Assembly (NCBI GenBank): GCA_015231405.1
Contig: JADGBR010000001.1
Location: 385,762-449,761, forward strand
DNA: 64,000 bases
Reading direction: 5' to 3'
Origin: Candidatus Omnitrophota bacterium
Lineage (GTDB): Bacteria; Omnitrophota; Gorgyraeia; Tantalellales; Tantalellaceae
Position numbers and translations under genes: made by a program. Positions within the stretch are counted from its first letter, which is position 1. The number at the start of each line of letters is the position of its first letter. Below are positions 776-21,700 of the stretch, piece after piece. The notes beneath the pieces are model-generated. The model searched no databases, was not told the origin of the DNA, and saw nothing but the letters and a program-made list of their open reading frames with translations.

Positions 776-3700
776 ATGTTACTTTCATTAGGCATAACCA
801 CAGCGATCAGTATGCATAAAACATTAGTGAAAAATTTACTAAACTATTTGCTAATATTATGTTTCATTTTAGAGGATATTTCCTGGGCCTTTGAAATTGA
901 ACCTTCCATCCGAATATCAAGCAACAATCTACAGGTGCAAACTCCTTTTAAGCCTATATCCGATGAAGACATTGGAATGACACTAAGATTGAAAGCACTT
1001 ATAAAAGCGGCACTTTCGTACATAAATCAGGAAGTAAAGATCGATGATGAGTTGATCGCTGACTTTGACTCATGCCTTTCCCCGGCTGACGGGATGAAAC
1101 ATTTATGGGAACCGGTTACTTTAGACGGCAATGATATATCCTGGGCCAGGTTCAATTATCTATTGGATTTTACAGATCATGGCACAAGCATATCGGGAAA
1201 AAGGAAGGAAGGAATAAACTGGGTAATAGACTGCTCCATAGGAAAAGGGGATGAGTTCTGGGAATACGAAGCGGTAATAACACCGGATAAATCAGTATAT
1301 TTAAGGATACCCGGTACGGACGACTATATCGGTGAGAGACCCGGACAAACCCAGGGTGATAGCAAGCGGAAGGGTGAAGACCCCTATTTTGGAGAAGGTC
1401 AAGGATTATTAGGGACTATGACGTCGGATGTGGCGTATAGCGTGTCAAAACGCGATTATTTGTGGGAATACCCAAGGGCTGAGAACATATTGCCGGAACT
1501 TAATAGGCTTTTTCCTTTAGACAAAATTAAAGCGGTTCTGGGCGCGGATATAGAGAGAATTAAGGTCGTCTTTCAGATATTCAGAAAAGACGATACGGCG
1601 GCGGAGTTCCCGGGAAAAGAAATATTCGCAGAGATGATCTATCCGTATAGCGGGTCGAATCAATTCGCGATAATATTCACGGAAAAAGCATATCACCTTT
1701 TCATGGAAGCGTTCAAGGATGACCTTGAACCTTTACTTAAGGCGATGATGTTTCACCTTTATAGCGAGTTTTATTGCAGAAAGCCCAGGCATATCGCTTA
1801 CCTCATGGCGATACAAAAATATCCCGCTGAGATGGCGCGGCTCGCTAAAGTATTCCCCGAACTCCGGTTCGAAATAAAAGAAGACATACGAACGGATATC
1901 CTTGAAGCTACGGGGTTCAAGGGCGATCATAAAGCAGAAAAAACGTTTGACCTTATGATGTCAAAAGGGCTTGCGAATAATAAAAACTCTCTTGAAATAA
2001 AGGCTCTTTTTGGTACTGTTCGGTTCATAAAAACCGAAAGGCGATGTTCCACTGATAAGGCCTTCGACTGTTTGGGAAAGTTGATCAACGCGGGAAGCGT
2101 AACAAAAGACAATATCGATAAGGTCAATGAGTTCTTCCTAAAAGTCACTGAAAGGATGGACTATTCCGGGGATTGGATGCTTGATGAAGTTATGAGGTTC
2201 ATAAATAAGATAGAAAGGAAGAAACTTGACAGGTCGGCTATCGGCATGGAGTTTCTCAGTTTTATAAGCGAGCATGATGAACACACCGCGACAAGCTCAT
2301 TCAGGGTAGCCGGTATCATGGCAGAATCCGGAATAGTGAACAAGAGTAACATGCACAAGGTAAAAGAGTTGATAAACTGTCTATCCGGGAGTTTCGGGTT
2401 CGGATCGCTTGATCATAAAGCGCTTTTTAAGGCTCTTGGCAGGGCAAAGCTGCTTTCTCCGGATAGATTCGGGGAAATACACGCCCTATTGATCCAGTTG
2501 TTTTCATACAAGACAGGCACCAGAGACTGGCCTGACGGGTATAGGAGCGAAAAAACGAGAGCCATCATACGGTTGGCTAAAAAGATCGGTGACGGGAAGC
2601 TGAATGTTCAGGCAAGTGACTTAAAATGGCTGATACGGACGATCTCGGGTATGAGACATTCGGTAAGCGTTTATAATGTTGTAGATATAATGGCAGTATT
2701 CTGGGAAACCGGTATCGCTGGAAAAAAGGATCACGGTAAACTGTCGAAACTGTTCAGGAGAATGGATTCACTTCCGATACTCGATGAGGATCGCGATAGG
2801 GGCGACGGTAACCCTTATAAATCGCTGATAAAACTGGCTGAAGACACACTCGCCGGCAGGATCCATAAGGAACAGGTGGACCTGGATATGCTTATACATC
2901 TCTGTCGTGATGACTGGTCCGTAGATTCTAAACAGGAAATGTATCGGAAAATGCTTGTTTTAGGACTTACCGAAGGTCTTGGCAAAAGAGAAATAAAAGT
3001 GGTATTGGATAAATTCTCGGATGATTATTGGGGTATATCGCCGAACCTTGACGAAATGCTGGTTAATAAGGAGAAGTATAGGCTCGATCTCCCTGAGCCG
3101 CGACTGTTTGTAAGGCTTGTTAAGACAATCCCTGGAAATATTTCAAAAGCGATGAATTATATCAGTATCCTTACTGGCATACCGGGCTATAACTTCTCAA
3201 ATTGCGGTGATCTCGCGGAACTCTTGGAATTAACCAAAACTGCGGTTGACAGGTTTCAGGGGCAGAACGCTTTCGAGGACGCCATTTATTACGCGAAAAA
3301 GGTGCGGGATGAACATCTTCCCGCGGACGCTATAGACCATTCGATCGTAATGAAGTTATACCGGCGTACGCATAAAAATGGAGATGAAGATACAAGGCTT
3401 CGAAATCAATTCTCCATTCTTGGATCCGCGGCCGCTATCGGGCTGGATATACGCGCCGGGTATGACGAATTGGCGGAGTTCCATGATATGTTCGGAAGCC
3501 GCTTCGAGGAGCAGTCTGAGCATGCACTTAGTGTTTATGTGAGATCGGTCATCGATGAGAAACTTGATAGGAGTCTCGTTGATATTAAATTCTTAAAGGT
3601 CCTCTTTGGCAATGTTTCACATTCATACATAGATTCGGCAATTTCAGAGATCTTGAAAACCGCCAGAAGAATAAAGATCGGTGAGCTTCCCGGCGGGCCT

Positions 3701-6700
3701 CTTAAAAATGGTATGCTCCTAGGGCTCGGCGAGCTATCTTCCAATTATCATGTGAATGTATTCACGACGTTTGAGCCGCTCCTCGAAGCTCTGAAAAAAG
3801 GGGATATACGTCCGGGGCTGCTTTCCCCCGATTTGTTCCTGTCGATAGAGGCGGATACAGGCGCGAATAAAACCTACGCGGCTTTATTATTTAAGACTCT
3901 CGCTGAAACAGGGGCTTTAAAAAATGTCAGTAAAGCACGGATCAAGAAGTATTTCCGAGAAGCCGGGAAGTCGATAAACTCCTGGGATGATTGGAACTCA
4001 CTTGACCATATAGCTTCCATGGCCAGCTCTCTCTATCATGACGATAAGAAAGGCGTATTCGAATTGCTTGGTAAACTCGCAAAAAATTACTCCGGATCTA
4101 TGAGCGTTCTAAAAGAACCTTTTTCGACTCTCCGAAACCAGTTAATGAGGATAGAACCCGAGAAACGGAAAGATATCAAAGACCTTGTTATGAGGATTTT
4201 GCAGCACCCTGACAGTAACCCGGGGAAAGCGCTTGTCACTATAGGCGCGTTCATTAATTTTTCGATAATTTCAACAGGCGATGCGTCAAATATCCAATGT
4301 TTTCTGGATAATATCATGAAGATGGAAACAGATAGAGGTGAAGCCTGGGAAATATTGACAGAACTCGCTGAGATGGGTGTGTTACACGATGAGAACATCG
4401 GCGATCACATAGCGCTATACGAAAAACTCGCTCTGGTAGAAGGGCCGGCCGCCAAAGGATTACTCCATTATGTAAGAGCGCTTAAAAACCTGGATATAGG
4501 GTCCTTAATGATGGACCTTGAACTGCTTACACTTATCGCCGGCGCGGGAGTGCGTAACGTATCAACGCTTTACGATAATCTCGGACCGGTAATAGTAGCA
4601 TATTCAGAAACCAGCGGGAACGTGGGATGCGATGAATTCTTGAGAACGCTTAAGGAAGGGATAAGTGACATAATTAACAAGGGTGCCGGAGAGGACGCGA
4701 TCCTTGAGTTCCTTATCGCGCTAAGGAAAGATTCAAGTCACATACTGGCCAGCGCTGTAGATGCTGTGTCACGGTCCGGATCGGCAATAACAACCTATGA
4801 GGGTTACAAATATCTTCTTCCTGACGAATTGAGGCATATAGCTCTAGACCCATCCATCGAAGAAAGAATAGCGCTAATTAATGACACGAATTTTATGAAC
4901 GGAGATAATCCCGTGTATTTATATCTACTCATGCGGAAGGAAAGCCCCGCGGCGGACGAGCTTTCCTGGGAAGTGTTCAGCGGCATCTTACGCGACGGGA
5001 AAACATTCAATTCTTACTATACGGCAAGCGTGCTCAAATTCATTCAAAAGGCGGTTTTCCACGCCGAGGCCGAACTTGAACCCGAACAGCAGGAGGAGAT
5101 CATAAAACTCTCTATAGCCCTGCATAAAAGCTTTCTGGAAATAGCCGGAAAAAGCGCTGATCAGGGCGCGCCGGTAGTGACTTTCAGGGAGCTGGTTAGG
5201 TTCAATGTCGATTTCTCGAAGTTCTATCTTAAGGAAGAAGGGCTGAAGAACGTATTCGAGATATTGATCCTAACTTCATACAACATATACGGCAGGGTAG
5301 TAACTGACGCCGGTAAAAAGAATGAATTTATAGAAAAGCTTTCCGAAACACTTAGGTCGAAAAAGTATAAAAAACTCCTCATCGAAGGCCAGCGGGATTC
5401 CATTACTATACGCGGTAATCTTTCCCAGCTTATAGAAAGGATCATAGACTATGGGCATTATTCGAAGCTGGATAACGAGCCCGGCCAAAACGATATCCCG
5501 ATAGAAACGTCGTTAAGGGCTTTTATTAAAAGGACTGAGGAAGTGCACCGCCCGGAACTGATGATATTAGACGATGAAAATACTATATTCTTCCAGAATA
5601 TGATCGAAAAGTTATCATCCGAACCAGACAGGGTCATTATCCCCGTTTATATGAACGCTTTCACCAAAAGGCAGGACCTTTTCGGCAAATATGTCCCGAA
5701 AGAGCCCATGAAGCTTGAAGACGCCGCGCGGATAATTGAACTTACCGGAAACTACGATCTCGTAACAGCGATATCCAATGTACTTGGTATCGACCGTGTA
5801 CGCGCGAATGAGTATCTTCTTAAAATGAACGATCCGGATACCCGCATAGAGGAAAACGTTATAACCGCGATCGCCGCATCCATAAAGTCAGGTCCTTTGT
5901 GGAGAGAGAACCTGGTATGGGAGGACGGGATCCTTATCCGTATCGTAAAAGCCGCGGCTAAAAACAGGAAAAAGAAGTTTACGCTCCTTTTCCAGAACAT
6001 TGATGCCTGCCCGGACGAGGTCCGGGTCGAGCTTAATCCGGTACTATGGGAGAATATGATAGAGATACCCGGCGGAAGCGGCAAAATGGATATTACGCCG
6101 AACCTGAATTTCCTGTTCACAATGCACGAGGGATCGCATATACAGGACCCCGCATTCATGGATAGGCCGCTAGTACATAAAATAATGAACGTAAGTGACA
6201 AAGACATAGTAACTTATATAAAGAATGAAGCAAGGCTCGGCGGGGCCGTGCTAGAGCGGCTTATGATGTTCTATAGAGCTGTCAAAGATCCGGCTAATGG
6301 AATTGATATCGAAGCCGGGCTTAACGACTTAATAGAAATAGCTAAAAGGATAAGCGGGCGGGCCGTCGAATACGGTGAAAAGGATTCCGATATAATGGAT
6401 GAAGAGATATATAGGTACCTTTCCCTTAAAACTCCGGATAAAGGCTCAAAAGAAAAACTATGGCGGATGATATCTCCCCGGCGTAGGATCTTCAAATGGA
6501 AACCCCCTGTATCCGATATGGAGGTAAAGAACGGGTCGATCATTTTCAACGGCGTCGGTGTAAAGTTATCCGAAGGAACAATGCTAAAGTGGGGACTTTC
6601 TCCAAATGGGAACGTTAACAAAAAATCGGTAATGAAGATGCTCCTCGACCACTCAGGTTATACCGTTACGGACACTGAGATAGACATTTTCGCGCAGTTA

Positions 6701-9700
6701 GCTCGCGCTATGAAATACGGGGCGAAGGCGATACAGCTCGTCGGACCTTCCGGAGAAGGGAAAACCGAGATAGCGAAGGTGTTCTCAAATATCATAGGGT
6801 ACGGCCTTAATGAAAGAACCGTTAACCAGGATACGGACCTTGCGGATATTCGTGGTGAAGTGAGGCAGGACGAGAACGGAAAGTATTATCTGCATGAACC
6901 GGAGTATATCAAGTCCATCGATAAAGAGGGGCATGTCTTCCTTGTCAATGAGGTAAATACCGGGAATAACGGAGGACTCTACAACTGGTATTTCCCGGAG
7001 ATATCAGGCGCGACCTTTAAACCTCTTAATGAATTTCCGCCGATGGACGGTTCACTTGACAGGTCCAGAACCATAAACCGCGATAATTTATGGATCTTTA
7101 CGGCAAATCCCGATACTACATCGGGAAGAGAAAAAACTCCCGGGAGAGTCTCGGCCCATCTCACAAATTTCTATATGGCCACGGATCCGAAGGATATAGG
7201 GCCGATATGCCGGGACCTGTTCAAGAAAGACAGCTTAAACAAATACGTTAAAAAAGGCAGGATACTGGCTAGGGTTCACAGAAAATTCTATGACTTGAAA
7301 TTGAGCGGCGCGTACCGGGGAGACCAGGATGTTACCAGGCGCGAGCTTATATCAGTAAGGGATAAATTCGAGGCGTATATCAATGATAAGATCGAACCCG
7401 ATACAGCGTTCAGGCAGGCTTTGTATGAGGTATACGTGTATGGATGGAGAAGCCTTATAGACGGAAAACTCGCAAGAACGACTCTTGGTCCCATGGTGAG
7501 GACCGGAGAACTGTTGTCTATGGATGTGTCGTTAAAAGCTTGTTTAAAGGATCCCAAGAAGCCGGTAATATTTTTTAACGACAGCGCGACAACGGGATTC
7601 GATCCCGGTAAGGCCATAGCAGGTATGTTTCCAGATGCTAATGTAAAGAACGTTGTTTTAAGCTATTTTCACCGTAAAAGGCAGCTTTTGGGTGGTTTTG
7701 TCCCCTATGATTCTCCGGATAAGGACGATAAGGAGATGCCGGATGAACTTAAGCACAGATTTATGAGAGGGCTGGGTATTCTGCCTAAAATGATCGAGGA
7801 GGCGAGGTTTGACCGAAACAGAAAAAAATTCATGGTTTTAAGAAATTATACCAGGCTTAATTCGAGGGTGGCGCCGATAATGAACGAGTTCCTCCAGACA
7901 AGGCATATCGCCGAAATGGAGGATATAGTCGATGAAAGGACTGCATATCAGTTAAGATCGAAATTGATCGATAGAAATATGTTCGATGAAGTTTACGGCG
8001 AATTTCTGGAAAAGAATAACGGAATAGAAAGAGACAAAGAAATAACGCGCGAAACCGCAATGCGCCTCGCCAGATGGTTCTACTCGAACGCCCCGGATAA
8101 CCTCTATATCGTAGCCGAAGGGACGTCGAGCGGAGAATCCGATCTTGGCCCTCCCGAGATCAACCGGTTCAACGCGTGGAACACTTCCATTGAAATTGAT
8201 GACAAATGGATCGACGGATACCTTGACGGGAAGATCTCCGGCTATCTTGAACCTTTTAAGGATGTCATAAAAGACGCTGTAAAACGGATATTCTATCTCT
8301 ATGACTTTGAGGCGACATGCGGCGATAATGAATATAACCGTATGAGCGTGAGAGATATAGATAATTTCATTGAAGTATTGAGGGCTCAGGCCACATTAGA
8401 CGATAAAACTATCAAGGAAACCGCTTATTACGCGATGGCTTCCGGGCTCCGGACGAAATATCTCGAGGGTCTAAAGGACATGGTTCCGGAAATTAAAGAC
8501 CCTGCTGATCATATTAAAAAGATAAGGGCAAGAAGAGGCGGATATCTGTCAACTGACCCCGAATATGAACATCTCGCAGACACGGAAAAACTCGCGCGGC
8601 TTTACATGTCCTTCAATATGGCTTTCTCGGCTTCGAGGACAGTCATTTTAGAGGGCCCTACGGGGGGAGGCAAATCATCCGCGGCAAGGGATATAGCGAA
8701 AAGGATGGGCCTTCCTTTCTATGAGATACTCATGTATGACGACATTGACCCCGGCGATTTTCTCGGGAGGATGACAAAGTCAGGGAAAGAATTCATCCTG
8801 ACATGTGATACGGAAAAGCGAAGGCTCCTCATCCCATTTCTCAAAGCTTATACGAAAGGCGGCGTATTCCTTCTCGATGAAGGGGCAATGGGTTTGCAAT
8901 CCAAAGAGGTCATTACATTCTTAACAACGCTCGCTGAGCTTGGAGAGATCGATCTTAATGATCATCATCCCTATGCCGTCGGGAAACTGGATATCCTTAC
9001 GCGTCACCCGGACTTTCACCTTGTTATTGCCCAGAACCCCGGAGGAGAGACTATGGGGCGGACAGAACTCTCTTATGAGGCGATGTCGTCAGCTTTTAAG
9101 ATATGGGTGGATAATTTCATAACTCGGGCGGATTCCCTGAGGATGATCGACCATTATCTCGGAGATCTTTCGTCGAATGTGGAAAAAAAAGATAAAGCCG
9201 TAATATCGGGGATATATGAAAGCTTTTACAAGAAACACCCGGAGGACGGGTCGATAAGCCCGAGGCAGTTGATAACGTCAGTTAAAGTCATAAAAAAACT
9301 ATTGGAAGAAGGGATCAATTTTAAAAAGGCCATTATCCAGGGAATGATAATCTCGTATATGCCTAATATGTCCGAAGATGAGTATGTTTCCTTGAAGAAC
9401 GAGATAGTTTCGATGATCGATAAATTGATCGGGGATGACGATAGGCCAGGCTATAATGACGCGATAAGATCTACGTTCGAACAATGGGAAATGACCGCGG
9501 ATGTTAAGAACTCCGATGGCATTCTCAGCTTGAACGGTTTAGTCCTCCCGTATTCACCCGGCGGATCGAATGTCGACCCGAAAACTATAAAAATAACAGA
9601 AGACCTCGCTTCATTCAACAAGGTGATAAAACATATGGCCTGGGGGATCGCGCTGGATAAGCCGGTTGCCCTCCTTGAAGAGGATGGCGCTGACTCTTTG

Positions 9701-12700
9701 GATATAGTGAAGAAATTCTCACTCATTACGGGATATGACATGCATGTTCTATGGTCTCATGACGAAATGAGAAAGATGCATCTTGTTTCGGGCATATTGC
9801 CTAAATTCGGTAAGGTCCTGGACAAATACGGCGTAAAAAGCAAGGACATCTCCGAAGACTTCAAGCAGGGTCTGGGCTTTTTACTTGAGCACATTGAGAC
9901 GGAAGAGGATTATTTAAAGATGAAAGGCGGCGTCAAGAAGAAGCACAAGATACTCTTTTTTAACTTTATGGACGCTATCCCGGAACGTCAGCGCGTGCTT
10001 TTGAACGAGATACTGACAACTAAAAAACTGAGCGTAGAGGATGAAAACGGCGAGATAATTAATTATCGCCTTCCCGAATGGGTGCATATAGTTGTTTCAT
10101 GCCCGTTAGAACACAGGTTCTCATCCGCGTTCGTGAATAGGTTCATACCGGTAAGGTTGTCTCCGGTAACGGATATGGAGGAACTGAGGCAGATAATACC
10201 TAAGAGGTTCCCGCTTGTAAGGGATGAAGAGCTTGAATGGATAAGGGAAGTGGCTTTATCGGCTTATAAATTCAATAAAGCGGGAGGTTTTAACCGCAAT
10301 TACGGGTTCGCCCCGAACGACATAGAGAAACTAGCCTTGAGGATCCAGATCGAAAAACAAAAAGATATAGAGATCAACAGTTTTAACAGGAATCCACTGC
10401 ACTATATGACTAAAGCGGTTTATTTAAATTACATTCGCGGCATCGAAGATACAAATGACAGGGAAAGGTTCGAGAATGAGATATTCGTGCATCCGTTCCT
10501 TGAGACGTCGGTGTTCATCGAAAGAAAATTCGGCGCGAAGATCGACACGAGCGGCAACGTTAATTTAAGCGCCGATGAGATAAGCCGTTACCTAAATATC
10601 GGGATAGATATTAACAAACTCAAAGTACCGGCGGACGAACTTGCCGAGCATAAAAGGAACATCGATATTCTCGCGAAAAGGTTCGGTAAAGGATCGCAAC
10701 TTCTCCGGGAAACAATGAATCAGACGGACTCTAGAGGATTAAGGGCAGCATCCGTATATAGGAAACTTAGCGTTGAGTTTATCAATAATGCCGCTTTAGC
10801 TGACATTTATCGCCTGGAGATCACCCCGCGGGAAGGCTCGGAAACAGTAAAAATCATTGTGGCCATAAGCCGTCGGCCTAAGGCGGCTGTCCCGGAGTAT
10901 GACGCTAATAAAGAATTCAATAATCTGAGAGAATTATATCACGCGCTCCCTAAAAACACCGCTAAGCCGCTTTCTTACGCGGAAGAAGAAAAGAACGGCG
11001 ATGTTTATACTATCGTTTGTACAGAATCGCTGGAAAACCACGGGAGTCCTCATATCGTTTTCTCGGGAGGAGATCATAGAGTCCTTAGTATCGCGGAAAT
11101 CGGCAATGATAACGGAAAGGGCGACCATTTCATGAATGAGGATTATCTCGCGTTCCTTCAGGATCTAATCGGTCTTCAGATGGATGCGTTCGAAAAAGCC
11201 AGTAAAATACTCGATCCGAGAACGATCTCCGGGGATATCATGTATCCGTTCCTTATAGAAAACCAGCCAAAGGGCAGTGATTATCATTTAAATGCTGACC
11301 TGGCCTTTAGGACAGTCGCTTATGAGGGCGCTAAACCTTTGAAAATTACCAGCGCGGATAGACTACGGGATGGCAATAAGAAGGACCTCATTACGAGTAT
11401 CTTCAAGACGCATCAAGTGATCAATTGTGAAGGGGGTTGCAGAAAAAATGAAGAGGATATGCCGATCCCGGTATATGACAACTTATACGCTTTTTACATG
11501 TTCCTTGAGAAGAAACATCCCGGTAACGGTATGATAGAACTTCTGGATCTTCTGAAATACTATAATGAAGATATGACCTGCTACGGAAAGGACCCGGAAC
11601 TGGCCAGGATCTTTGAAACTGTCATGACAGATCCGGACAGGATCCTTAAAGCAGGTGAAAAGCGTTCGCCTCTTTATAGCGTTAATTTCATGAATTTATC
11701 CTTACTTAAACCAGATGTGGACATGATATACAGAGATATGAAAAAAGTGATAGAGGATGAACTTTCGCAGGTGAAAAGGGACACGTTTGATATCGTAAAG
11801 GTCGATATCGGGTCGATACCTTACAATAAAGCGATCTCACCGAAACCCGGTATTGAAATACTGAGAAATGACGATAACTATATCATTAGAACCCCAGCGA
11901 AAAGATATCTTGTGCCATTGTCGGAGTTCGGTGAAAGACGTGAACTTTCGCCCTATCTGAATATCTGGAAGAAAGACAATGATATGATGCTAGAGTTCAG
12001 ACTTATCAGCTCTATCGGAGGGGTCGAGCTTAAACGGGATGAGATCAATAAGTCAAACAGCCTGCCGGAAACGGAAGTGGCTACGTCTGAGTATATTTAC
12101 AATACAGATGAGATCAATATGATGACATCGGCACTACTTCGTTCCTGGGAGCCGGTCATCGACGGGGCTGGAAGACTTATCCTGCCGCGTGTCGTGCTGC
12201 TGGACGGGGAGACTGCTACGGCAAAAACGACGAGGATAAGGAATCTAGCGAGGATATGGGGATCGGATCTATATATACTCAACTCTTTCCATGATATAAG
12301 CGTCGCGGATACGACCGTAAAGCTGAGCGTCGAAAAAAGCAAGGTAAAGCTCAGCGTAAGGGAATTTCTCGCCCGGTTAGGCACGGTGAACGGCCAGAGG
12401 GTGGAGATCAAAGGTAAAAAAACGTCATCGCGTTCGATACTTCTCATAGATGAGGCTAACGCTTGCCCGGAGCTCTTTACCGCCCTTATGCCGATATTTC
12501 TGGGTGAAAAAAAGTTCTCGTTCAATTACGCCGGCGAAACTTTCAACGTCGAGATCGACGATGAGGTCATGGTCGTTCTGACCTTCAATCCGCCCGACAC
12601 ATATTCCGGGAGGGGATTCTTCCTGGAAAAACTCCTTTTCCTGTCGGATAAATTATGGGCACCGGACCCTATGACCCTGCCTGACCATATAATCGCAGGG

Positions 12701-15700
12701 ATACTCGGCGAATATCACAGGCGCGGAGTCACGAAAAAAGACGCCGTGTTAACAGCCGAGGATCAAGGTTCCCCCGAAGAGAGGATCGAGTCAAGTTATA
12801 GAAAGGTCGAGCCGGTCAATATCGGGGTCAAAGACCTCTCCCATCCGGATATTATGACGCTTGAGGAAATGGTAGACGATTCCAAAAAGAAGAGGACAAG
12901 GAAACGCGATACAAATGTGGAGTTCAATTTCGACTTGTCTAGATTAGCGGCCGACCTTTTCGCCATAGAAGCGTCGGATGATGATGCCAGACGTAACGCG
13001 AGGTTCACCGAACAAGTGCTGATACCCTTACTTTTAGGTTTGGGCCTTGGAGGGGTAGACGCCGAAATTATCCCAAAGGTATTGGATGGATCCAGGAAAG
13101 TCGATGAGAAATTACCCGAGATCATATCTTCGATCGTCGGCATATACGGACAGCCTTTGATCGAGGTAACTGAGCTGAAAGAGGCTCTCCGAAAACTCAA
13201 ACTCTTGTACGTCGAAAAATTTAACGTTTATCTCAATGTTAACATAACGTTAAAGGATGGTTCACCTCTAATAATAATCTATCCCAAGCCTATACTTGAA
13301 AAAGTGAGTTTTCCGCAAAAAAAGTTCGAGTCGCTGGGAATGCGACAGGTCTCCTATATGACGTATTCCATGAAAAAAGAATTTCTTCTGGTGGAGGGGG
13401 GGAAAGAGGATCACGATATCTCAAAATGCGGCGGATGCGGTGGGAATGATATAACCCAACCGTCCGAATCCGATATGATCGTCGATGACGGGGATAATTA
13501 TGTTATCTACGGTACCAAAATATTGTCTCTCGAAGGGATAGCTCCTCCGGTCGAGGTGATGAAATGGTTCGCGTATACGACGATGGGATTAAAAGCAGCC
13601 GAAAATCATAGCGAATCCCTAAAAAGAGACCTTGATGACCGCTGGCATCGCGGATGGGAAGAAAGAGAAAAACGTCAGAAGGAATACCAGGAATGGAGTG
13701 CAGTATGGATCCATTCGAGGCTTTTCCCGGCCATATTATCGGACTATTCAGTCGAATATCTGCTGAATTTCTTGGGATATTATCTTCTGGAGGTAAAAGA
13801 CCCGGAAGACCAAAGTTGTGTTGTGGCTATGCAAATATATAACGCTTTTCTCTCCTATTTTAAATCTCATAACCGTCTCCCCGAAGACATGCCTAAAATA
13901 TCGGATAAATTTGACGGGAAGACGATAGCGGCTGTCTCGGATATGATCAGAAAGGAGACATCTTCCGGTATAAATAAGATAGCTGCCGGTTTTTATGAAA
14001 AATTCGGCGAGTATTTTACGGACTTAAAGGTCCCCAAAAGAAAGATGGTAGTATATAAGTCAAGACACGTCCGAGAGAATGCGCCAATTTTAGATATACT
14101 TGACGTATTCAGAGGAGCCGGCGATATAGCCCCTCCGATGGATGATGTGGAAGTTGAGTACAGGTACACGGATGATGGCATTGGCGCACCGGAAGATAAG
14201 AAAGGAACTCAGGAAAAAGAAAAAATCAGAAAGCCCTCTCGGCTTATAGATACAAAAAATAAAGATCAAAGAACCACAAAAAGCGTCATAGGACAAAAAG
14301 GCGGCGGTGTCGCTTCGCCGAAGTCAGTAATGATCAGGGATGAGATTCAGACCCTCCTGAGGATATCACCCAGGTTGACATCAAGATTCCTTTCGATATT
14401 CGCGGGACTCCCGGATATAAGAAAAATATTCTCCGATTCCGGCGACGAACTCGACATAGAGAAGATAATTACCGGAGACCTGGAGCCATTTTTTCGCAAA
14501 CGGGTCGAAAGCAAGATTGCGAAACTCGATTGCGGCATCACGATCGACATAAGCGGATCGGTCGGAGGGGAACTCGCTGAAAATTATATGAATATGGTCA
14601 GGTTATATTCATCGCTGTTCTATTACGCATCGGTCAGGAATAAGGATGTTTCATTCTCCGTGAGCAGTTTGGGTTCAACATTCAAAAAATTCATCGAGTT
14701 CGGCGACTCGAGAAAAAAAGCGGTGATAGAGCAAAAACTGGGAAAGGTCAAGCAGCTATTGTCCTCCGAAGGGACCGATATCCCCGCAGCTATCAGAGGA
14801 ATAACCGAAAAATACGCTAAAAGGACGTCGAAGAACAAGATGGAGATCGTGCTGACCGATGGCGATGACTGTTCCGGTACGCCTATCGAAAAACAAATAG
14901 AAATGATCAAAGAAGCCGAAAAGAAAGGGATCGATATAATCTTTGTAGGTATAAATACGAAAAGCGTCGCCAATTATCCTAAATATCTACTCCTCGACCA
15001 TAAACCTTCTACGGAAGAGCTTATGGACCTAATTATGAAGCTGGCTATGTTAAAGAACCGCAAAGGGATGCTTCCCGAAGGAGATATCGGGGCATGGTTC
15101 GGTAAGAGCGTTCCGATAAAAAAGGAAAAGAAAAGAACGAATGAGCCGCAATATGTAACGGCGCCATCTATTTCTCCGTTAATTATGCTGTTGGGGTGGT
15201 GGGCCTTAATTATTCCTATGATGTTCATCGCGCATGACATTGTGGTTTATCTGCTTAACAATAGCCATCAATTTACCAAATGGTTGAAAGGGCATGAAAT
15301 TATCGGCAACACGTTGAGATCACTTTGTAGTGATTATATCCTCTTGGGAAAGCGATATTATCCCAACGAGCCGGTAATGGCCGCTCCTCATTCTGCCGGA
15401 GTGAATGATCGGATCATTGCGGGAACATCGGATAATGATCGATACGCACCCGCTCGATATTTGCCTCCTGCCGGGGCGGAAGTTGTTCATAACCGGGTAA
15501 CGCCCCTGAAAAAGGACACAGCTAAGATGCATGCGAAAGCGTTAGTCGCCGCCGGGGACATATCCAGTCCTGAAATGACGGCTAAACTTATTGTAGATAA
15601 GCTCCTATCGCGCGCTATGACCGGAAAAATAGCGCTGGCCTTTGATAAGGATCTCGGGGGCCAGAATTCAACCATTATACTTTCCGTATTTGAAGAACTG

Positions 15701-16144
15701 GCGAGACTTAAAAAGACCAGGAAATTCAGGAGGATCCTTGAGAACGTTGAGGTCGTGATAGGTGAACCCGCGGAACTGGCGAAAAATATCGACGATCTTA
15801 TGACAAGAGATTTCGAGGTCTTTATGTTCGCGAGGGAAACGGAGAGGGAGCGATTCCTGAAAAAAGAAGAAGGAATGCGCGCGGTATATGTAAACGAGAG
15901 CGCTCATCCGGACATGGCATATTATCCGCTCGCGGAAATAGTGGCGATATCCCTCGCCCAGGCGTTCGACCCGAAGACGATCGAAAGGATAGGGAAAGCT
16001 TTCGAGAAACTCAATATAAGCCCGGAAAATATCAACAGGGTAACCGCTCTCGTGTTTACGCTTATCCCTGAGGCCGTTGAACTAGATAAACAGGAATATA
16101 TCCGTAGATACGCGGTTCTAAAACGGTATTTGAAAGCCGCGTAA
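776..16144 (+). CDS. Giant 5122-aa protein with three MoxR/midasin-type AAA+ ATPase modules, a vWA/MIDAS domain, a C-terminal TM helix and a conserved C-terminal module
   Basis: Uninterrupted 15,369-nt ORF. Walker A motifs: GPSGEGKT (6743-6766), GPTGGGKS (8654-8677), GETATAKT (12206-12229). Walker B: FLVNE (module 1, Asp replaced by Asn, 6947-6952), LLDEG (8876-8881), LIDEAN (12449-12454). MoxR-like sensor-1 motifs FTANP, IAQNPG, LTFNPPD. vWA MIDAS DISGS (14546-14560) with downstream LTDGDD. Hydrophobic helix APSISPLIMLLGWWALIIPMMFIAHDIVVYLL (~15161-15256). No N-terminal signal peptide. The start could instead be the ATG at 812 (MHKTLV...). Confidence 0.9.
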   Translation: MLLSLGITTAISMHKTLVKNLLNYLLILCFILEDISWAFEIEPSIRISSNNLQVQTPFKPISDEDIGMTLRLKALIKAALSYINQEVKIDDELIADFDSCLSPADGMKHLWEPVTLDGNDISWARFNYLLDFTDHGTSISGKRKEGINWVIDCSIGKGDEFWEYEAVITPDKSVYLRIPGTDDYIGERPGQTQGDSKRKGEDPYFGEGQGLLGTMTSDVAYSVSKRDYLWEYPRAENILPELNRLFPLDKIKAVLGADIERIKVVFQIFRKDDTAAEFPGKEIFAEMIYPYSGSNQFAIIFTEKAYHLFMEAFKDDLEPLLKAMMFHLYSEFYCRKPRHIAYLMAIQKYPAEMARLAKVFPELRFEIKEDIRTDILEATGFKGDHKAEKTFDLMMSKGLANNKNSLEIKALFGTVRFIKTERRCSTDKAFDCLGKLINAGSVTKDNIDKVNEFFLKVTERMDYSGDWMLDEVMRFINKIERKKLDRSAIGMEFLSFISEHDEHTATSSFRVAGIMAESGIVNKSNMHKVKELINCLSGSFGFGSLDHKALFKALGRAKLLSPDRFGEIHALLIQLFSYKTGTRDWPDGYRSEKTRAIIRLAKKIGDGKLNVQASDLKWLIRTISGMRHSVSVYNVVDIMAVFWETGIAGKKDHGKLSKLFRRMDSLPILDEDRDRGDGNPYKSLIKLAEDTLAGRIHKEQVDLDMLIHLCRDDWSVDSKQEMYRKMLVLGLTEGLGKREIKVVLDKFSDDYWGISPNLDEMLVNKEKYRLDLPEPRLFVRLVKTIPGNISKAMNYISILTGIPGYNFSNCGDLAELLELTKTAVDRFQGQNAFEDAIYYAKKVRDEHLPADAIDHSIVMKLYRRTHKNGDEDTRLRNQFSILGSAAAIGLDIRAGYDELAEFHDMFGSRFEEQSEHALSVYVRSVIDEKLDRSLVDIKFLKVLFGNVSHSYIDSAISEILKTARRIKIGELPGGPLKNGMLLGLGELSSNYHVNVFTTFEPLLEALKKGDIRPGLLSPDLFLSIEADTGANKTYAALLFKTLAETGALKNVSKARIKKYFREAGKSINSWDDWNSLDHIASMASSLYHDDKKGVFELLGKLAKNYSGSMSVLKEPFSTLRNQLMRIEPEKRKDIKDLVMRILQHPDSNPGKALVTIGAFINFSIISTGDASNIQCFLDNIMKMETDRGEAWEILTELAEMGVLHDENIGDHIALYEKLALVEGPAAKGLLHYVRALKNLDIGSLMMDLELLTLIAGAGVRNVSTLYDNLGPVIVAYSETSGNVGCDEFLRTLKEGISDIINKGAGEDAILEFLIALRKDSSHILASAVDAVSRSGSAITTYEGYKYLLPDELRHIALDPSIEERIALINDTNFMNGDNPVYLYLLMRKESPAADELSWEVFSGILRDGKTFNSYYTASVLKFIQKAVFHAEAELEPEQQEEIIKLSIALHKSFLEIAGKSADQGAPVVTFRELVRFNVDFSKFYLKEEGLKNVFEILILTSYNIYGRVVTDAGKKNEFIEKLSETLRSKKYKKLLIEGQRDSITIRGNLSQLIERIIDYGHYSKLDNEPGQNDIPIETSLRAFIKRTEEVHRPELMILDDENTIFFQNMIEKLSSEPDRVIIPVYMNAFTKRQDLFGKYVPKEPMKLEDAARIIELTGNYDLVTAISNVLGIDRVRANEYLLKMNDPDTRIEENVITAIAASIKSGPLWRENLVWEDGILIRIVKAAAKNRKKKFTLLFQNIDACPDEVRVELNPVLWENMIEIPGGSGKMDITPNLNFLFTMHEGSHIQDPAFMDRPLVHKIMNVSDKDIVTYIKNEARLGGAVLERLMMFYRAVKDPANGIDIEAGLNDLIEIAKRISGRAVEYGEKDSDIMDEEIYRYLSLKTPDKGSKEKLWRMISPRRRIFKWKPPVSDMEVKNGSIIFNGVGVKLSEGTMLKWGLSPNGNVNKKSVMKMLLDHSGYTVTDTEIDIFAQLARAMKYGAKAIQLVGPSGEGKTEIAKVFSNIIGYGLNERTVNQDTDLADIRGEVRQDENGKYYLHEPEYIKSIDKEGHVFLVNEVNTGNNGGLYNWYFPEISGATFKPLNEFPPMDGSLDRSRTINRDNLWIFTANPDTTSGREKTPGRVSAHLTNFYMATDPKDIGPICRDLFKKDSLNKYVKKGRILARVHRKFYDLKLSGAYRGDQDVTRRELISVRDKFEAYINDKIEPDTAFRQALYEVYVYGWRSLIDGKLARTTLGPMVRTGELLSMDVSLKACLKDPKKPVIFFNDSATTGFDPGKAIAGMFPDANVKNVVLSYFHRKRQLLGGFVPYDSPDKDDKEMPDELKHRFMRGLGILPKMIEEARFDRNRKKFMVLRNYTRLNSRVAPIMNEFLQTRHIAEMEDIVDERTAYQLRSKLIDRNMFDEVYGEFLEKNNGIERDKEITRETAMRLARWFYSNAPDNLYIVAEGTSSGESDLGPPEINRFNAWNTSIEIDDKWIDGYLDGKISGYLEPFKDVIKDAVKRIFYLYDFEATCGDNEYNRMSVRDIDNFIEVLRAQATLDDKTIKETAYYAMASGLRTKYLEGLKDMVPEIKDPADHIKKIRARRGGYLSTDPEYEHLADTEKLARLYMSFNMAFSASRTVILEGPTGGGKSSAARDIAKRMGLPFYEILMYDDIDPGDFLGRMTKSGKEFILTCDTEKRRLLIPFLKAYTKGGVFLLDEGAMGLQSKEVITFLTTLAELGEIDLNDHHPYAVGKLDILTRHPDFHLVIAQNPGGETMGRTELSYEAMSSAFKIWVDNFITRADSLRMIDHYLGDLSSNVEKKDKAVISGIYESFYKKHPEDGSISPRQLITSVKVIKKLLEEGINFKKAIIQGMIISYMPNMSEDEYVSLKNEIVSMIDKLIGDDDRPGYNDAIRSTFEQWEMTADVKNSDGILSLNGLVLPYSPGGSNVDPKTIKITEDLASFNKVIKHMAWGIALDKPVALLEEDGADSLDIVKKFSLITGYDMHVLWSHDEMRKMHLVSGILPKFGKVLDKYGVKSKDISEDFKQGLGFLLEHIETEEDYLKMKGGVKKKHKILFFNFMDAIPERQRVLLNEILTTKKLSVEDENGEIINYRLPEWVHIVVSCPLEHRFSSAFVNRFIPVRLSPVTDMEELRQIIPKRFPLVRDEELEWIREVALSAYKFNKAGGFNRNYGFAPNDIEKLALRIQIEKQKDIEINSFNRNPLHYMTKAVYLNYIRGIEDTNDRERFENEIFVHPFLETSVFIERKFGAKIDTSGNVNLSADEISRYLNIGIDINKLKVPADELAEHKRNIDILAKRFGKGSQLLRETMNQTDSRGLRAASVYRKLSVEFINNAALADIYRLEITPREGSETVKIIVAISRRPKAAVPEYDANKEFNNLRELYHALPKNTAKPLSYAEEEKNGDVYTIVCTESLENHGSPHIVFSGGDHRVLSIAEIGNDNGKGDHFMNEDYLAFLQDLIGLQMDAFEKASKILDPRTISGDIMYPFLIENQPKGSDYHLNADLAFRTVAYEGAKPLKITSADRLRDGNKKDLITSIFKTHQVINCEGGCRKNEEDMPIPVYDNLYAFYMFLEKKHPGNGMIELLDLLKYYNEDMTCYGKDPELARIFETVMTDPDRILKAGEKRSPLYSVNFMNLSLLKPDVDMIYRDMKKVIEDELSQVKRDTFDIVKVDIGSIPYNKAISPKPGIEILRNDDNYIIRTPAKRYLVPLSEFGERRELSPYLNIWKKDNDMMLEFRLISSIGGVELKRDEINKSNSLPETEVATSEYIYNTDEINMMTSALLRSWEPVIDGAGRLILPRVVLLDGETATAKTTRIRNLARIWGSDLYILNSFHDISVADTTVKLSVEKSKVKLSVREFLARLGTVNGQRVEIKGKKTSSRSILLIDEANACPELFTALMPIFLGEKKFSFNYAGETFNVEIDDEVMVVLTFNPPDTYSGRGFFLEKLLFLSDKLWAPDPMTLPDHIIAGILGEYHRRGVTKKDAVLTAEDQGSPEERIESSYRKVEPVNIGVKDLSHPDIMTLEEMVDDSKKKRTRKRDTNVEFNFDLSRLAADLFAIEASDDDARRNARFTEQVLIPLLLGLGLGGVDAEIIPKVLDGSRKVDEKLPEIISSIVGIYGQPLIEVTELKEALRKLKLLYVEKFNVYLNVNITLKDGSPLIIIYPKPILEKVSFPQKKFESLGMRQVSYMTYSMKKEFLLVEGGKEDHDISKCGGCGGNDITQPSESDMIVDDGDNYVIYGTKILSLEGIAPPVEVMKWFAYTTMGLKAAENHSESLKRDLDDRWHRGWEEREKRQKEYQEWSAVWIHSRLFPAILSDYSVEYLLNFLGYYLLEVKDPEDQSCVVAMQIYNAFLSYFKSHNRLPEDMPKISDKFDGKTIAAVSDMIRKETSSGINKIAAGFYEKFGEYFTDLKVPKRKMVVYKSRHVRENAPILDILDVFRGAGDIAPPMDDVEVEYRYTDDGIGAPEDKKGTQEKEKIRKPSRLIDTKNKDQRTTKSVIGQKGGGVASPKSVMIRDEIQTLLRISPRLTSRFLSIFAGLPDIRKIFSDSGDELDIEKIITGDLEPFFRKRVESKIAKLDCGITIDISGSVGGELAENYMNMVRLYSSLFYYASVRNKDVSFSVSSLGSTFKKFIEFGDSRKKAVIEQKLGKVKQLLSSEGTDIPAAIRGITEKYAKRTSKNKMEIVLTDGDDCSGTPIEKQIEMIKEAEKKGIDIIFVGINTKSVANYPKYLLLDHKPSTEELMDLIMKLAMLKNRKGMLPEGDIGAWFGKSVPIKKEKKRTNEPQYVTAPSISPLIMLLGWWALIIPMMFIAHDIVVYLLNNSHQFTKWLKGHEIIGNTLRSLCSDYILLGKRYYPNEPVMAAPHSAGVNDRIIAGTSDNDRYAPARYLPPAGAEVVHNRVTPLKKDTAKMHAKALVAAGDISSPEMTAKLIVDKLLSRAMTGKIALAFDKDLGGQNSTIILSVFEELARLKKTRKFRRILENVEVVIGEPAELAKNIDDLMTRDFEVFMFARETERERFLKKEEGMRAVYVNESAHPDMAYYPLAEIVAISLAQAFDPKTIERIGKAFEKLNISPENINRVTALVFTLIPEAVELDKQEYIRRYAVLKRYLKAA
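14520..15000 (+). other. vWA/MIDAS domain of giant protein 1
   Basis: DxSxS motif DISGSVGG followed by the hhhhTDG motif (IVLTDGDD) and the IDIIFVGI beta-strand, typical of the vWA Rossmann-like fold. Confidence 0.7.
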
Positions 16145-18742: not shown

Positions 18743-21700
18743 ATGGTCATAAAATATGAAAGGGTTAACTTTACATTAATAAACTTATTGATATCAATTT
18801 TATTGATTTATCCAAACGAGGCACATTCGCAGGACCAGGATAACTCTTCGATTGGTTTGAATAAGACCGAGATCGTTTTAGAAAGTTTCCAGGGGGAAGC
18901 GGCTAAAACAGCTTCGTTCACGATCACCAATCAGACAGGCGAAGAAAGGTCATATATGGCGATCAAGGATTCGCCATGGGTGTCGGTTAAGCCGGTAAAA
19001 TGCGCGTTAAAGGCCGGTGAAGGCAAAGAAATTGAAGTGTCGTTCGATACCTCAAAAATGGATCCGGGAGAACACAAAGCGGCTATAAGCGTTGAGGAAC
19101 CTCTTACCGACGCGAATGCAGAGACGATAAAGATCAGTGTGACGATCAAGCCCAGGGTAATGATACTTGTTAACCCGGCCGCAATATCCTCAAAGCTCAC
19201 AGCCGGGAAGTCGGATAAAGGGGCTTTCAAAGTCAGTAGCGCTGGGGCCGATAAAGTGTTTTATAAGATCTCTTCCGATGTCACATGGGTCTCTTTCGAT
19301 ACAAGGGGCGGGGTTATATTTAAAGGCGATATAGCCGATGTTATGTTCGATATCTCGACGGAAGGTCTTCCTCCGGGTGAACATAAAGCCGCTATAAAAG
19401 TTGAAAGTTCAGAAGCCGCGAATAGCCCCCAGACGATAGATCTCGCGTTGACAGTAACGGATGACGGGCCAAAGCCGAAGATAGAAATAAGCGCGGACGC
19501 GCTTGAATATGAAGTTAAAGGCAAAGACCCTTCACTGCCTCAGGCTTTTCTGATCTCGAATGAGGGAGGTGGCAAGCTCAACGCGAAAATATCGGCGAAT
19601 GTTCCATGGTTAAAGATCTCGCCGGATTCGGGTAAGGCTGGGAAGAATGAGGATATAATAATTTCTGTTTTTTGCGTGAACGAAGGGTTATCGGCAGGCG
19701 ATAATAAGGGCGTAATAACCGTTTCCGGCGATAACGCCTCAAATAGCCCGATCGAGATAGCGGTCAGCGCGAATTATGAGGAAAAACCCGAAAAGAACAC
19801 GGAGGATAAAGAGCCCGAAATACGTATCGATCCGGCCGAACTTACCGCGCGCGCGGCGCGGGGCAAGGACCCTATGAAGGGCGCTCTTTACATTGAAAAT
19901 TCCGGTAAAGTCGACCTTGTTTACGAGATCGTAACAGAAGATAAATGGCTGTCAGTTAAACCGTCGAAAAAAGAGCTAAAGCCCGGCGAAAGGTCCGAAT
20001 TAGAGGTCATCTACAAGACATCTGACCTTGGCGTTGACGCGTATTCCTCGGAGATGGATGTTAAGGTAAAAGACTCGGATACGGTCTATGCGATACCGGT
20101 AGCGCTTACGGTCGATCCGCAAAAAAGCGGAGTTAAAAAGAAAGAGACATTGAGCTCCGAGGAGGCGAACGAATGGTGGCAGAAAAGCCCGTGGAATAAA
20201 ATGCCTGAAAAGGGTGAGACCATATACACAAGAGGGACGCTTCCGCCTCGCCCGCTTATCCCGTTCATCATGACATTTGGGAATAAAGCGGATAAAGACA
20301 TATCATATATGGATTTCAGGGACAATAAGGAGATCACTCTGAGTTATGGCGATTGGAATAAACACATGGGCAGCATTTCCTTTACTGACGAAAATGGCAA
20401 GTTCCTTTATGGGGTAGGCGATCCTATCCTATGGGAAGTCACTGTCAACTATGCCCTTTACAGCCCCTGGGCGGAACGCTGGGGATACGCCCTGGAAAAA
20501 TATTATTACGCCGGATCATATTATGAAGGTTGGACAAGCGAGCCTTTATCCGGGACAGACGCGGATGAGGCGGTCATCATTAAAAAGCCGGAGTTTAACG
20601 ATAAAGGGAAAAAGGTTCGAGAACAATGTCATCTTATCGCGGTTAAGGGAGGAGCCGTTGTCGATATATACGGGACGATTAATATCGAAGTATGCGTAAA
20701 AGTAATGGGTAAAGAGATCGATCTTAAAGAATTACTGGAGCAGGCTTTAAAACAGACTTCCGATAAGAAATGGACGAGTTTATATAAGCCCGATAAAGGC
20801 GATCCACGATACGATAATTTACTACCGCGGCTAAAGCCGTTTGTCAGGAATATGGGCACGCTTGACCCGCATTTCATTGATTACCGTCCTTTGGCCGGAG
20901 GTAATGACGTTAATAAGCAGATCAGCCTGGGATATACTACTTTCACGCTTCCTAATAAAGCAAAAGAATGGAGATGCGAGGTCAATAACCTTTCTTTCTT
21001 CTATCCTGACAATAACGGGAAGGAACAGTCGGAAAATATGGTTAAATACAGCTTAGAAGGCTATAAACAGGGATATTACGCTAACTTGCATGAAACTCAT
21101 CCCATATCAAAAGGTGACGAAGGCTATCTAGTGATCTTGTACAACACCGATAACAATGGCGAAAAATACCTGTCAGGATACCAGTATATAATCCGTGTCG
21201 GTACATCCGTGATTAAATTTGCTTTTTCTGAAGGTAAGGGAGAACCTCCGGCTGAGATCGTCGATGACCTTATCGCTCTCGCAGGTAAAATGGATTATGA
21301 CGAATTGTTTAACGAAGCTTACGCCCAGATCACATCAGGTGAGATAAGCGTCCAGGAAGATATCCCTAATGAACCTGACTTTTCCTTAGATGCCGAACCT
21401 TTCGAGATAACCGGGCCCGAAGATGTCTCCGAAGAAGACACGCCGCAAGCTATAAACCCTCAGGTCGGTCAAAATAACCAGGCCTTGAACGCGGCGAATA
21501 CCCCAAAAACCGGAGACAAAAGCGCTAACGGCCTTGTATATTCCGAAACTTTCAATGATTGGGTTAAACCGTCGGTTTATGATAACGAGATCAAACAGAA
21601 AGAGGCCGGGCGCATATGGATGGGCGACAAACGCGGATGGGAAACGGCCGATGAAACAAAGGATAAAGACGCGCTGAATGAACGTTATGAGACTGGCCGA

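Follow-up and report, generated by a model that had tools for sequence, protein, structure and literature searches.

Can an ATPase site keep its place in a molecular machine after losing its Walker B aspartate, and if so, what does the site then do? The question is raised by a 64,000-nucleotide stretch of a Candidatus Omnitrophota genome (hereafter the window), which contains two giant open reading frames (ORFs) coding for proteins with several AAA+ modules and a vWA domain. ORF1 (776–16144, 5122 amino acids; NCBI MBF0215716.1, which begins at M68) and ORF2 (25198–43686, 6162 amino acids; MBF0215721.1) lie five genes apart on one 490,973-bp contig and, like all features below unless stated otherwise, are on the + strand. 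Few residues of P-loop NTPases are as conserved as the Walker B aspartate, and degenerate AAA+ sites usually lose the adjacent glutamate or the whole motif. An earlier reading of the window, made from the sequence alone, had proposed that the first AAA+ module of both proteins has exchanged this aspartate in a parallel substitution (NE in ORF1 and SE in ORF2), that the other modules keep the canonical DE, and that the altered module is a conserved regulatory one that possibly binds nucleotide but does not hydrolyze it. The analysis described below shows that the replacement is a conserved feature of a protein family and no chance change. The reading that we favor for its function is that of a slow regulatory site in a single-chain ring.

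The Walker B motif of the first P-loop module

The replacement is found in the first module that has a P-loop. As this is the second of six AAA-type modules (a to f) in each protein, and not the first AAA+ module as initially thought, we call it module b. In ORF1, module b (6653–7564, amino acids ~1960–2263, a Pfam AAA_5 domain; Walker A GPSGEGKT at 6743–6766) contains the string HVFLVNEVNTG at 6932–6964 (amino acids 2053–2063), in which the aspartate is replaced by N2058 (codon AAT, 6947–6949) and the glutamate, E2059 (GAG, 6950–6952), is kept. Its ORF2 counterpart (29143–30117, amino acids ~1316–1640; Walker A GATGAGKT at 29233–29256) reads GGVAAVSEMNTS at 29437–29472 (amino acids 1414–1425), with S1420 (TCC, 29455–29457) in place of the aspartate. 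Both strings are in frame, at the positions originally reported for them. The remaining two P-loop modules, d and f, are canonical in both proteins. ORF1 has LLDEG (8870–8884) following the Walker A motif GPTGGGKS (8654–8677) in module d, and LIDEAN (12443–12460) following GETATAKT (12206–12229) in module f. The corresponding motifs of ORF2 are IFDEG (31534–31548) after GPPGGGKT (31309–31332), and IVDEAN (40075–40092) after GDTGAAKT (39877–39900).

The register of the motif is supported by several comparisons. The spacing between Walker A and Walker B is ~65–80 residues in all six P-loop modules, and in their MAFFT alignment the N, D and D of ORF1 share a column with the S, D and D of ORF2, around which the Walker A motif, the sensor-1 'NP' and a 'GR' motif are aligned. 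By profile, the best solved relative of module b is midasin/Rea1 (E 1.5e-34), and the 'flvnevnt' of the module b profile pairs with 'IVLDELNL' of Rea1 AAA3 and 'VLLDEMNL' of Rea1 AAA5. In an AlphaFold model of ORF1 module b, which used a 17-sequence alignment and has a predicted local distance difference test score (pLDDT) of 83.4 and a predicted template modeling score (pTM) of 0.78, strand 3 comprises model residues 93–98 (ORF1 2053–2058). N2058 closes this strand, which is the usual place of the Walker B aspartate. Strand 1 of the model is followed by the P-loop, strand 4 ends at N2111, and the strand pairs 68–71/77–80 and 121–123/137–139 are the helix-2 insert and the pre-sensor-1 beta-hairpins. 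A Foldseek search with this model found NorQ/CbbQ as its closest structures (template modeling score 0.7–0.85), followed by dynein (E about 1e-9 to 1e-10), McrB and Rea1. The Walker B assignment in module b is correct. A mis-assigned motif is ruled out by the sister modules, the midasin alignment and strand 3 of the model, and no canonical hhhhDE is found elsewhere in the module. The AAA_5 match, the Foldseek results and the midasin profile match also bear out the proposed membership of the module in the MoxR/dynein/midasin group.

An exhaustive HMMER search of 1.84 billion cluster representatives with a profile of modules a–d resulted in 2177 proteins at E ≤ 1e-3 and 169 at E ≤ 1e-30, including P0002 (ORF1 from M68) and P0003 (ORF2). 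In a word-index search, ORF1 modules a+b had a single partial match, an Omnitrophica protein (P0001, 38% identical) whose module b reads TFLFNEINT; none was found in this search for ORF2 module b or for the 17-sequence family alignment, and two scans of genome contigs gave no confirmed locus. The named members of the family come nearly all from Candidatus Omnitrophota/Omnitrophica metagenome-assembled genomes (MAGs), with a few from MAGs of Chlamydiota and Elusimicrobiota, and their annotations are only "AAA family ATPase", "MoxR-like ATPase" or "hypothetical protein".

The replacement was counted in the 48 representatives (≤50% mutual identity) that have exactly three modules with a Walker A lysine, by the position of the module and independently of module typing. 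The first P-loop module reads SE in 30 of them, NE in 16 and DE in 2, whereas the second and the third read DE in 48 out of 48 each (Fisher's exact p = 1e-35). When module b is identified by type (73 clusters), the aspartate column contains S in 63%, N in 31% and D in 2% of the sequences, and the next position is Glu in 97%. The asparagine or serine is thus conserved in orthologues, and the replacement is a feature of the family. A literature search for AAA+ proteins in which the Walker B aspartate is naturally replaced gave no result; yeast Rfc5 may be a precedent with 'NE', but no argument is built on it here.

In a neighbor-joining tree of module b, the N-type sequences, to which ORF1 belongs, form one clade and the S-type sequences, to which ORF2 belongs, make up the remainder. 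The tree is tentative; its midpoint root falls among the S-type sequences. The only two representatives with DE in module b, P0013 (NLHLMDEINTC) and P0015 (NVHMFDEINTC), are both nested in the N clade and hence look like a reversal from Asn to Asp, although this too is tentative. This aspartate is missing from nearly the entire family, of which ORF1 and ORF2 represent two subfamilies that diverged deeply, and its loss would therefore most simply be inherited from a common ancestor. Independent parallel substitutions are disfavored by the same tentative tree (a single N clade, S elsewhere and DE within N), and what appeared as a parallel change in two paralogues is better described as the difference between two old subfamilies. 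The source MAG apparently has at least four family members, one N-type and three S-type. Two of these, MBF0215968.1 (P0008) and MBF0216581.1 (P0004), were placed in this MAG by their accession series, which is the same.

Six modules in alternation and their arginines

In both ORF1 and ORF2, a module of similar length but without a P-loop stands before each P-loop module. Modules a, c and e contain no GK[ST], and their Walker B position reads x-N, not D-E (LLFQNID in ORF1 module a). With the P-loop modules they share the landmarks LxGGxxP, xGhL and 'AFxxRF', as well as strands at the Walker B and sensor-1 positions. In ORF1, module a (5528–6475, amino acids ~1585–1900, AAA_5-type) precedes module b and is followed further on by modules c (7538–8515, ~2255–2580), d (8573–9478, ~2600–2901), e (9638–10579, ~2955–3268) and f (12125–12955, ~3784–4060). 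ORF2 has the same order, with module a at 27520–28494 (amino acids ~775–1099), c at 30085–31074 (~1630–1959), d at 31228–32157 (~2011–2320), e at 38740–39681 (~4515–4828) and f at 39799–40593 (~4868–5132). The string 'abcdef' is the commonest one among ~79 representatives of the family (≤50% mutual identity), and fragments agree with it, which establishes the order of the modules.

We base the AAA homology of modules a, c and e on hhalign and Pfam, since the six P-loop-less modules of the window, searched as a profile against the PDB, matched only McrB, and only marginally (E 0.89), albeit in the expected register. According to hhalign, the family profiles of the P-loop-less modules are related to one another (a and e with a probability of 99.8%, c with a and with e 99%) and to those of the P-loop modules (e and d 97%, E 9e-11; a and d 84%, E 7.5e-6; a and b 89%). 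The Pfam AAA_5 profile (PF07728, dynein-related subfamily) scores 73.5 and 54.9 bits on P-loop modules of ORF1 and 36.6 and 38.2 bits on those of ORF2 at a cutoff of 22. On ORF1 module a it scores 27 bits against the same gathering threshold, and the match stops exactly at R1797; on ORF2 module e the match is weak (E 0.013) and extends across the whole profile. BLAST pairs ORF1 modules a+b with ORF2 modules e+f, which fits a triplicated two-module unit. An archaeal midasin-like protein from Thermoproteota (P0070, MFC1753351.1) has six P-loop modules, all with DE, in which GETxxGKT and GPTASGKT alternate. This alternation suggests that the two-module repeat unit may be older than the loss of the P-loop in the Omnitrophota family.

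The P-loop-less modules have a conserved arginine directly before strand 5, which is R1797 in ORF1 module a (6164–6166; 97% in the family), R2464 in module c (8165–8167; 96%) and R3122 in module e (10139–10141; 100%). In the family alignments of b, d and f, no conserved arginine is found in this arginine-finger column. The arginine finger of MoxR ATPases is located N-terminal to core strand 5 (PMC7159879), and in NorQ the order of the motifs is sensor 1, post-sensor-1 loop, arginine finger and sensor 2 (PMC13036017). In Rea1, helix H4 of AAA5 contributes the finger to the AAA4 site, i.e. module n+1 serves site n (PMC6286127). Applied to the giants, this rule would assign the finger of c to site b, that of e to site d and that of a to site f, and we infer that R2464 of module c completes site b. 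The complementary losses, of the P-loop in a, c and e and of the arginine in b, d and f, fit neatly with such a scheme of fingers acting in trans. We propose that the P-loop modules need no finger of their own because their upstream neighbors bind no nucleotide.

Possible functions of site b

Apart from the aspartate, the catalytic residues of module b are conserved across the family at a level similar to that of its canonical sisters. The three glycines, the lysine and the threonine of its Walker A motif are conserved at 97, 97, 95, 97 and 94%, respectively (the lysine is at 100% in both d and f). The Walker B glutamate is found in 97% of b, 98% of d and 100% of f modules, the latter two having the aspartate in 100% of cases. 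The sensor-1 asparagine, N2111 (7106–7108), is invariant in b (100%) and present in 96% of d and 92% of f modules. It is followed by the arginine of the 'GR' motif in the post-sensor-1 loop, R2118 (7127–7129), which is conserved at 98% in b, 93% in d (R2762) and 79% in f (R3946), all three being modules without a canonical finger. The sensor-2 arginine R2189 (7340–7342), which belongs to the lid motif (T/S)xRE, is at 98%, as is R2830 of module d. In total, 13 columns of module b are at least 90% conserved (22 in d and 10 in f), while module b sequences are only ~25% identical to each other across the family. A compensating acidic residue was looked for in module b, and E2086, which lies in the pre-sensor-1 hairpin, is the only other acidic position that is conserved. 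Since the Walker A Lys and Thr, the Walker B Glu, the sensor-1 Asn and the sensor-2 Arg are kept at 94–100%, site b is best regarded as a constrained nucleotide site and not a decayed one. Together with the arginine of module c, these near-invariant residues support a site that would bind nucleotide and be functionally read out, and they argue against a catalytic apparatus freed from selection.

The Walker B aspartate binds Mg2+, and the adjacent glutamate is essential for hydrolysis (PMC9976466). A further role proposed for the aspartate is that of proton acceptor for the Walker A Ser/Thr during catalysis (Kozlova et al.), and mutation of the aspartate usually hampers hydrolysis, not binding (PMC6344862). 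Our preferred reading, to which we assign a probability of roughly one half, is that of a single-chain ring with composite sites, in which site b binds ATP, hydrolyzes it slowly and acts as a regulatory or latch site. The six MoxR/midasin-type modules would form one ring in the fixed order a-b-c-d-e-f with three composite ATP sites, b+c, d+e and f+a. Site b would bind ATP, and the site's own sensors as well as R2464 would read its state. Lacking the carboxylate that serves to organize Mg2+ and as the partner of the Walker A Ser/Thr, the site would have a turnover that is slow or dependent on a trigger. It would thus be a built-in latch that breaks the three-fold symmetry of the ring, whereas the canonical sites d and f would be the power sites that move the MIDAS domain and its cargo. 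By analogy with midasin and the MoxR-vWA pairs, the motion of the ring may be passed to the MIDAS domain, where a bound ligand would be remodeled or released. Site b does not appear to be decaying because everything but one carboxylate has been kept through the history of the family. As the sequence-only reading had it, the substitution is conserved, and its role is probably regulatory. The likeness to the degenerate sites of dynein and midasin invoked in that reading is loose, and the kind of degeneracy differs, because only the aspartate is lost here and the glutamate is kept in 97% of the sequences.

Several points weigh against this assignment. The closure of the ring and the geometry of the module c arginine relative to site b are deduced by homology. 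The sole multi-module AlphaFold model, that of a-b-c, was calculated with a 3-sequence alignment and has a pLDDT of 52.8 and a pTM of 0.32, so that only its secondary structure was used and its support is weak. The family alignments were built from our own iterated hidden Markov models on cluster representatives. The preferred reading does not account for the conserved 'GR' arginine of b, d and f. The D279A and D279N mutants of McrB, which belongs to the same clade, were impaired in nucleotide-dependent oligomerization (PMC6344862), and the loss of the aspartate could therefore weaken binding as well. Finally, a catalytic glutamate present in 97% of the sequences fits equally well with hydrolysis at a normal rate.

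The last point leads to the first of two alternatives that the present data do not separate from the preferred reading, which is why we give the latter no more than an even chance. Site b might be fully competent, with the serine or asparagine forming a hydrogen bond to an Mg2+-bound water, in which case the change would be benign or would only tune the affinity for the metal. The conservation of the glutamate, of both sensors and of the module c arginine (97, 100, 98 and 96%) is what one would expect of such a site. Furthermore, the column contains only the small polar residues S, N and D and never Ala, Gly or a hydrophobic residue, and two lineages have apparently gone back to Asp with no further visible change. 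However, the aspartate is invariant in d and f of the very same proteins, no conserved acidic residue compensates for it in b, and conservation and catalytic importance are ascribed to it throughout the P-loop NTPases (Kozlova et al.), its mutation generally hampering hydrolysis (PMC6344862). We consider a fully competent site rather unlikely.

The second alternative, which was the original interpretation of the replacement and which we find no more convincing than the first, is that site b holds ATP permanently and never hydrolyzes it, the nucleotide being structural as in dynein AAA2. An intact Walker A motif that has lost its Mg2+-organizing aspartate is compatible with this idea, and such sites are common in single-chain AAA+ rings, e.g. 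AAA1 and AAA6 of Rea1 (PMC6286127). However, where sites are known not to hydrolyze ATP, the glutamate or the entire Walker B motif has typically gone (midasin AAA1 reads ED and AAA6 DN or KQ), whereas in site b the glutamate, the sensor-1 residue and the trans arginine show the conservation of catalytic sites, which would be surprising if hydrolysis did not matter. An empty, decayed pseudo-site or a canonical hhhhDE hidden elsewhere is most improbable: McrB D279N does lose nucleotide-dependent assembly, so that the loss of the aspartate is able to abolish binding in this clade, but 13 near-invariant columns that include the whole P-loop persist at ~25% overall identity, the register is confirmed by the sister modules, midasin and strand 3 of the AlphaFold model, and b has no second conserved acidic pair.

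Returning to the slow regulatory site, a more far-reaching and still doubtful proposition is that the family represents an undescribed AAA+ design. In such a design, a single chain would form a 'trimer of pseudo-ATPase/ATPase pairs'; the P-loop-less modules would survive only as arginine-finger donors, and one site would have been re-engineered early to work without its aspartate but with its glutamate. If true, such pairs would be a test case for the role of the Walker B aspartate as an Mg2+ organizer or a proton acceptor, and the giant Omnitrophota proteins would contain an obligatorily asymmetric ring that drives a MIDAS domain. Site b could serve as a natural system in which Mg2+/ATP binding is parted from hydrolysis, and the family may help in understanding how single-chain rings allot regulatory and power sites. 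For the giant proteins that recur in Omnitrophota, it also offers a first approach to function; these bacteria are poorly understood, and most of their giant genes are without annotation. We expect these findings to be of moderate interest, to those who work on AAA+ mechanisms and to students of Omnitrophota giant proteins. In the literature we found no account of the family or of its alternating module layout; a preprint on Omnitrophota giant genes gives AAA_5 only as one of the frequent domains.

Related machines and the surroundings of the two genes

Midasin/Rea1, the best solved relative by sequence, is also a giant single chain with six tandem AAA_5-type modules, long helical regions and a C-terminal MIDAS/vWA domain with DxSxS. 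An acidic low-complexity stretch ahead of the vWA domain is a further likeness, although in ORF2 only. Some sites are non-canonical in midasin as well, AAA1 and AAA6 of Rea1 being without a proper Walker B motif (PMC6286127). However, the presence of a P-loop in all six modules, as judged from the midasin-like outgroups, is a defining feature of midasin, whereas modules 1, 3 and 5 of the giants have none, and the midasin motifs read ED in AAA1 and DN, ED or KQ in AAA6 as opposed to the S/N-E of site b. The giants are bacterial, mostly from Omnitrophota, with WD40 propellers in the ring region of ORF2 and a transmembrane-like segment in ORF1. Because their hosts are known from bacterial MAGs, their function must differ from that of midasin in the maturation of eukaryotic pre-60S ribosomes.

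The MoxR-vWA systems (NorQ/NorD, CbbQ/CbbO and RavA/ViaA) resemble the giants in the predicted fold of module b, for which NorQ/CbbQ were the best Foldseek matches, in the order of the motifs from sensor 1 through the post-sensor-1 loop and the arginine finger to sensor 2, and in that a MIDAS domain is functionally coupled to an AAA ring, as presumed for the giants. One class of these systems has beta-propellers fused to its vWA component (Kaur et al. 2020), which recalls the WD40 region of ORF2. In the giants, one chain contains six non-identical modules, only three P-loop sites and the vWA domain, whereas each of these systems combines a homo-hexamer, in which a single-module protein supplies six identical DE sites, with a vWA domain on a protein of its own.

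The giants are also comparable to cytoplasmic dynein, a single-chain ring of six modules of the same clade, in which catalytic, regulatory, ATP-binding-only and P-loop-less modules are mixed. Its degenerate modules are clustered (AAA5 and AAA6) and not alternating, and its ATP-binding-only module AAA2 lacks the catalytic glutamate, not the aspartate. Dynein has no vWA domain, and neither a stalk nor a microtubule-binding domain is seen in the giants. In Pex1/Pex6, the Mg-chelatase BchI/BchD and RNF213, catalytic modules stand beside inactive AAA modules that provide interface residues, and in BchD a degenerate AAA module is coupled to a vWA domain. However, Pex1/Pex6 and BchI/BchD are multi-subunit complexes, RNF213, in which some of the six modules are active, is not strictly alternating, and we know of no conserved S/N-E Walker B motif in any of them. 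VWA8 (KIAA0564) resembles the giants, by description, in the architecture visible at the Pfam level, as it has three dynein-related AAA modules and a C-terminal vWA/MIDAS domain (PMC8517341), but it is a mitochondrial protein of 1905 amino acids. We regard the giants as a machine of the midasin/MoxR-vWA kind, with alternating P-loop-less modules and an aspartate-less site b.

Their description as AAA-vWA proteins stands, because a vWA domain is found near the C-terminus of each and has the DxSxS motif in both. In ORF1, the vWA/MIDAS domain (14525–15100; Pfam VWA E 8.7e-9) has DISGS at amino acid 4591. In ORF2 (42229–42831) it has DLSGS at amino acid 5685 and is related to the ORF1 domain by BLAST (E 2e-15), its Pfam VWA score of 23.7 bits being borderline to the cutoff of 23.8. 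Just upstream of this domain, ORF2 contains a stretch of low complexity in which Asp/Glu and Gly/Ser/Pro are abundant (amino acids ~5430–5560, ~41500–41900), which ORF1 does not have. The transmembrane-like hydrophobic segment of ORF1 is C-terminal to its vWA domain (amino acids 4799–4827, 15170–15256). At the other end of ORF1, the NCBI start at M68 (nucleotide 977) leaves out the hydrophobic N-terminus of the longest ORF (776–976). The WD40 beta-propellers of ORF2 make up an insert of ~2,100 amino acids between modules d and e (32395–38697, amino acids ~2400–4500). The insert is absent from ORF1, and long gaps between d and e also occur in some other S-type members.

A contig search with a neighboring 518-amino-acid SDR-like ORF gave no match. 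Also of note is that the window contains several other large ORFs. The space between the two giants includes a 1506-amino-acid BACON/Ig-like protein (18743–23263). Downstream of ORF2, two ORFs on the − strand code for a protein of 1992 amino acids with no Pfam match (45257–51235) and an FHA-domain protein of 2263 amino acids (51441–58232), and a GH5 cellulase-like protein is encoded on the + strand at 59314–61524.

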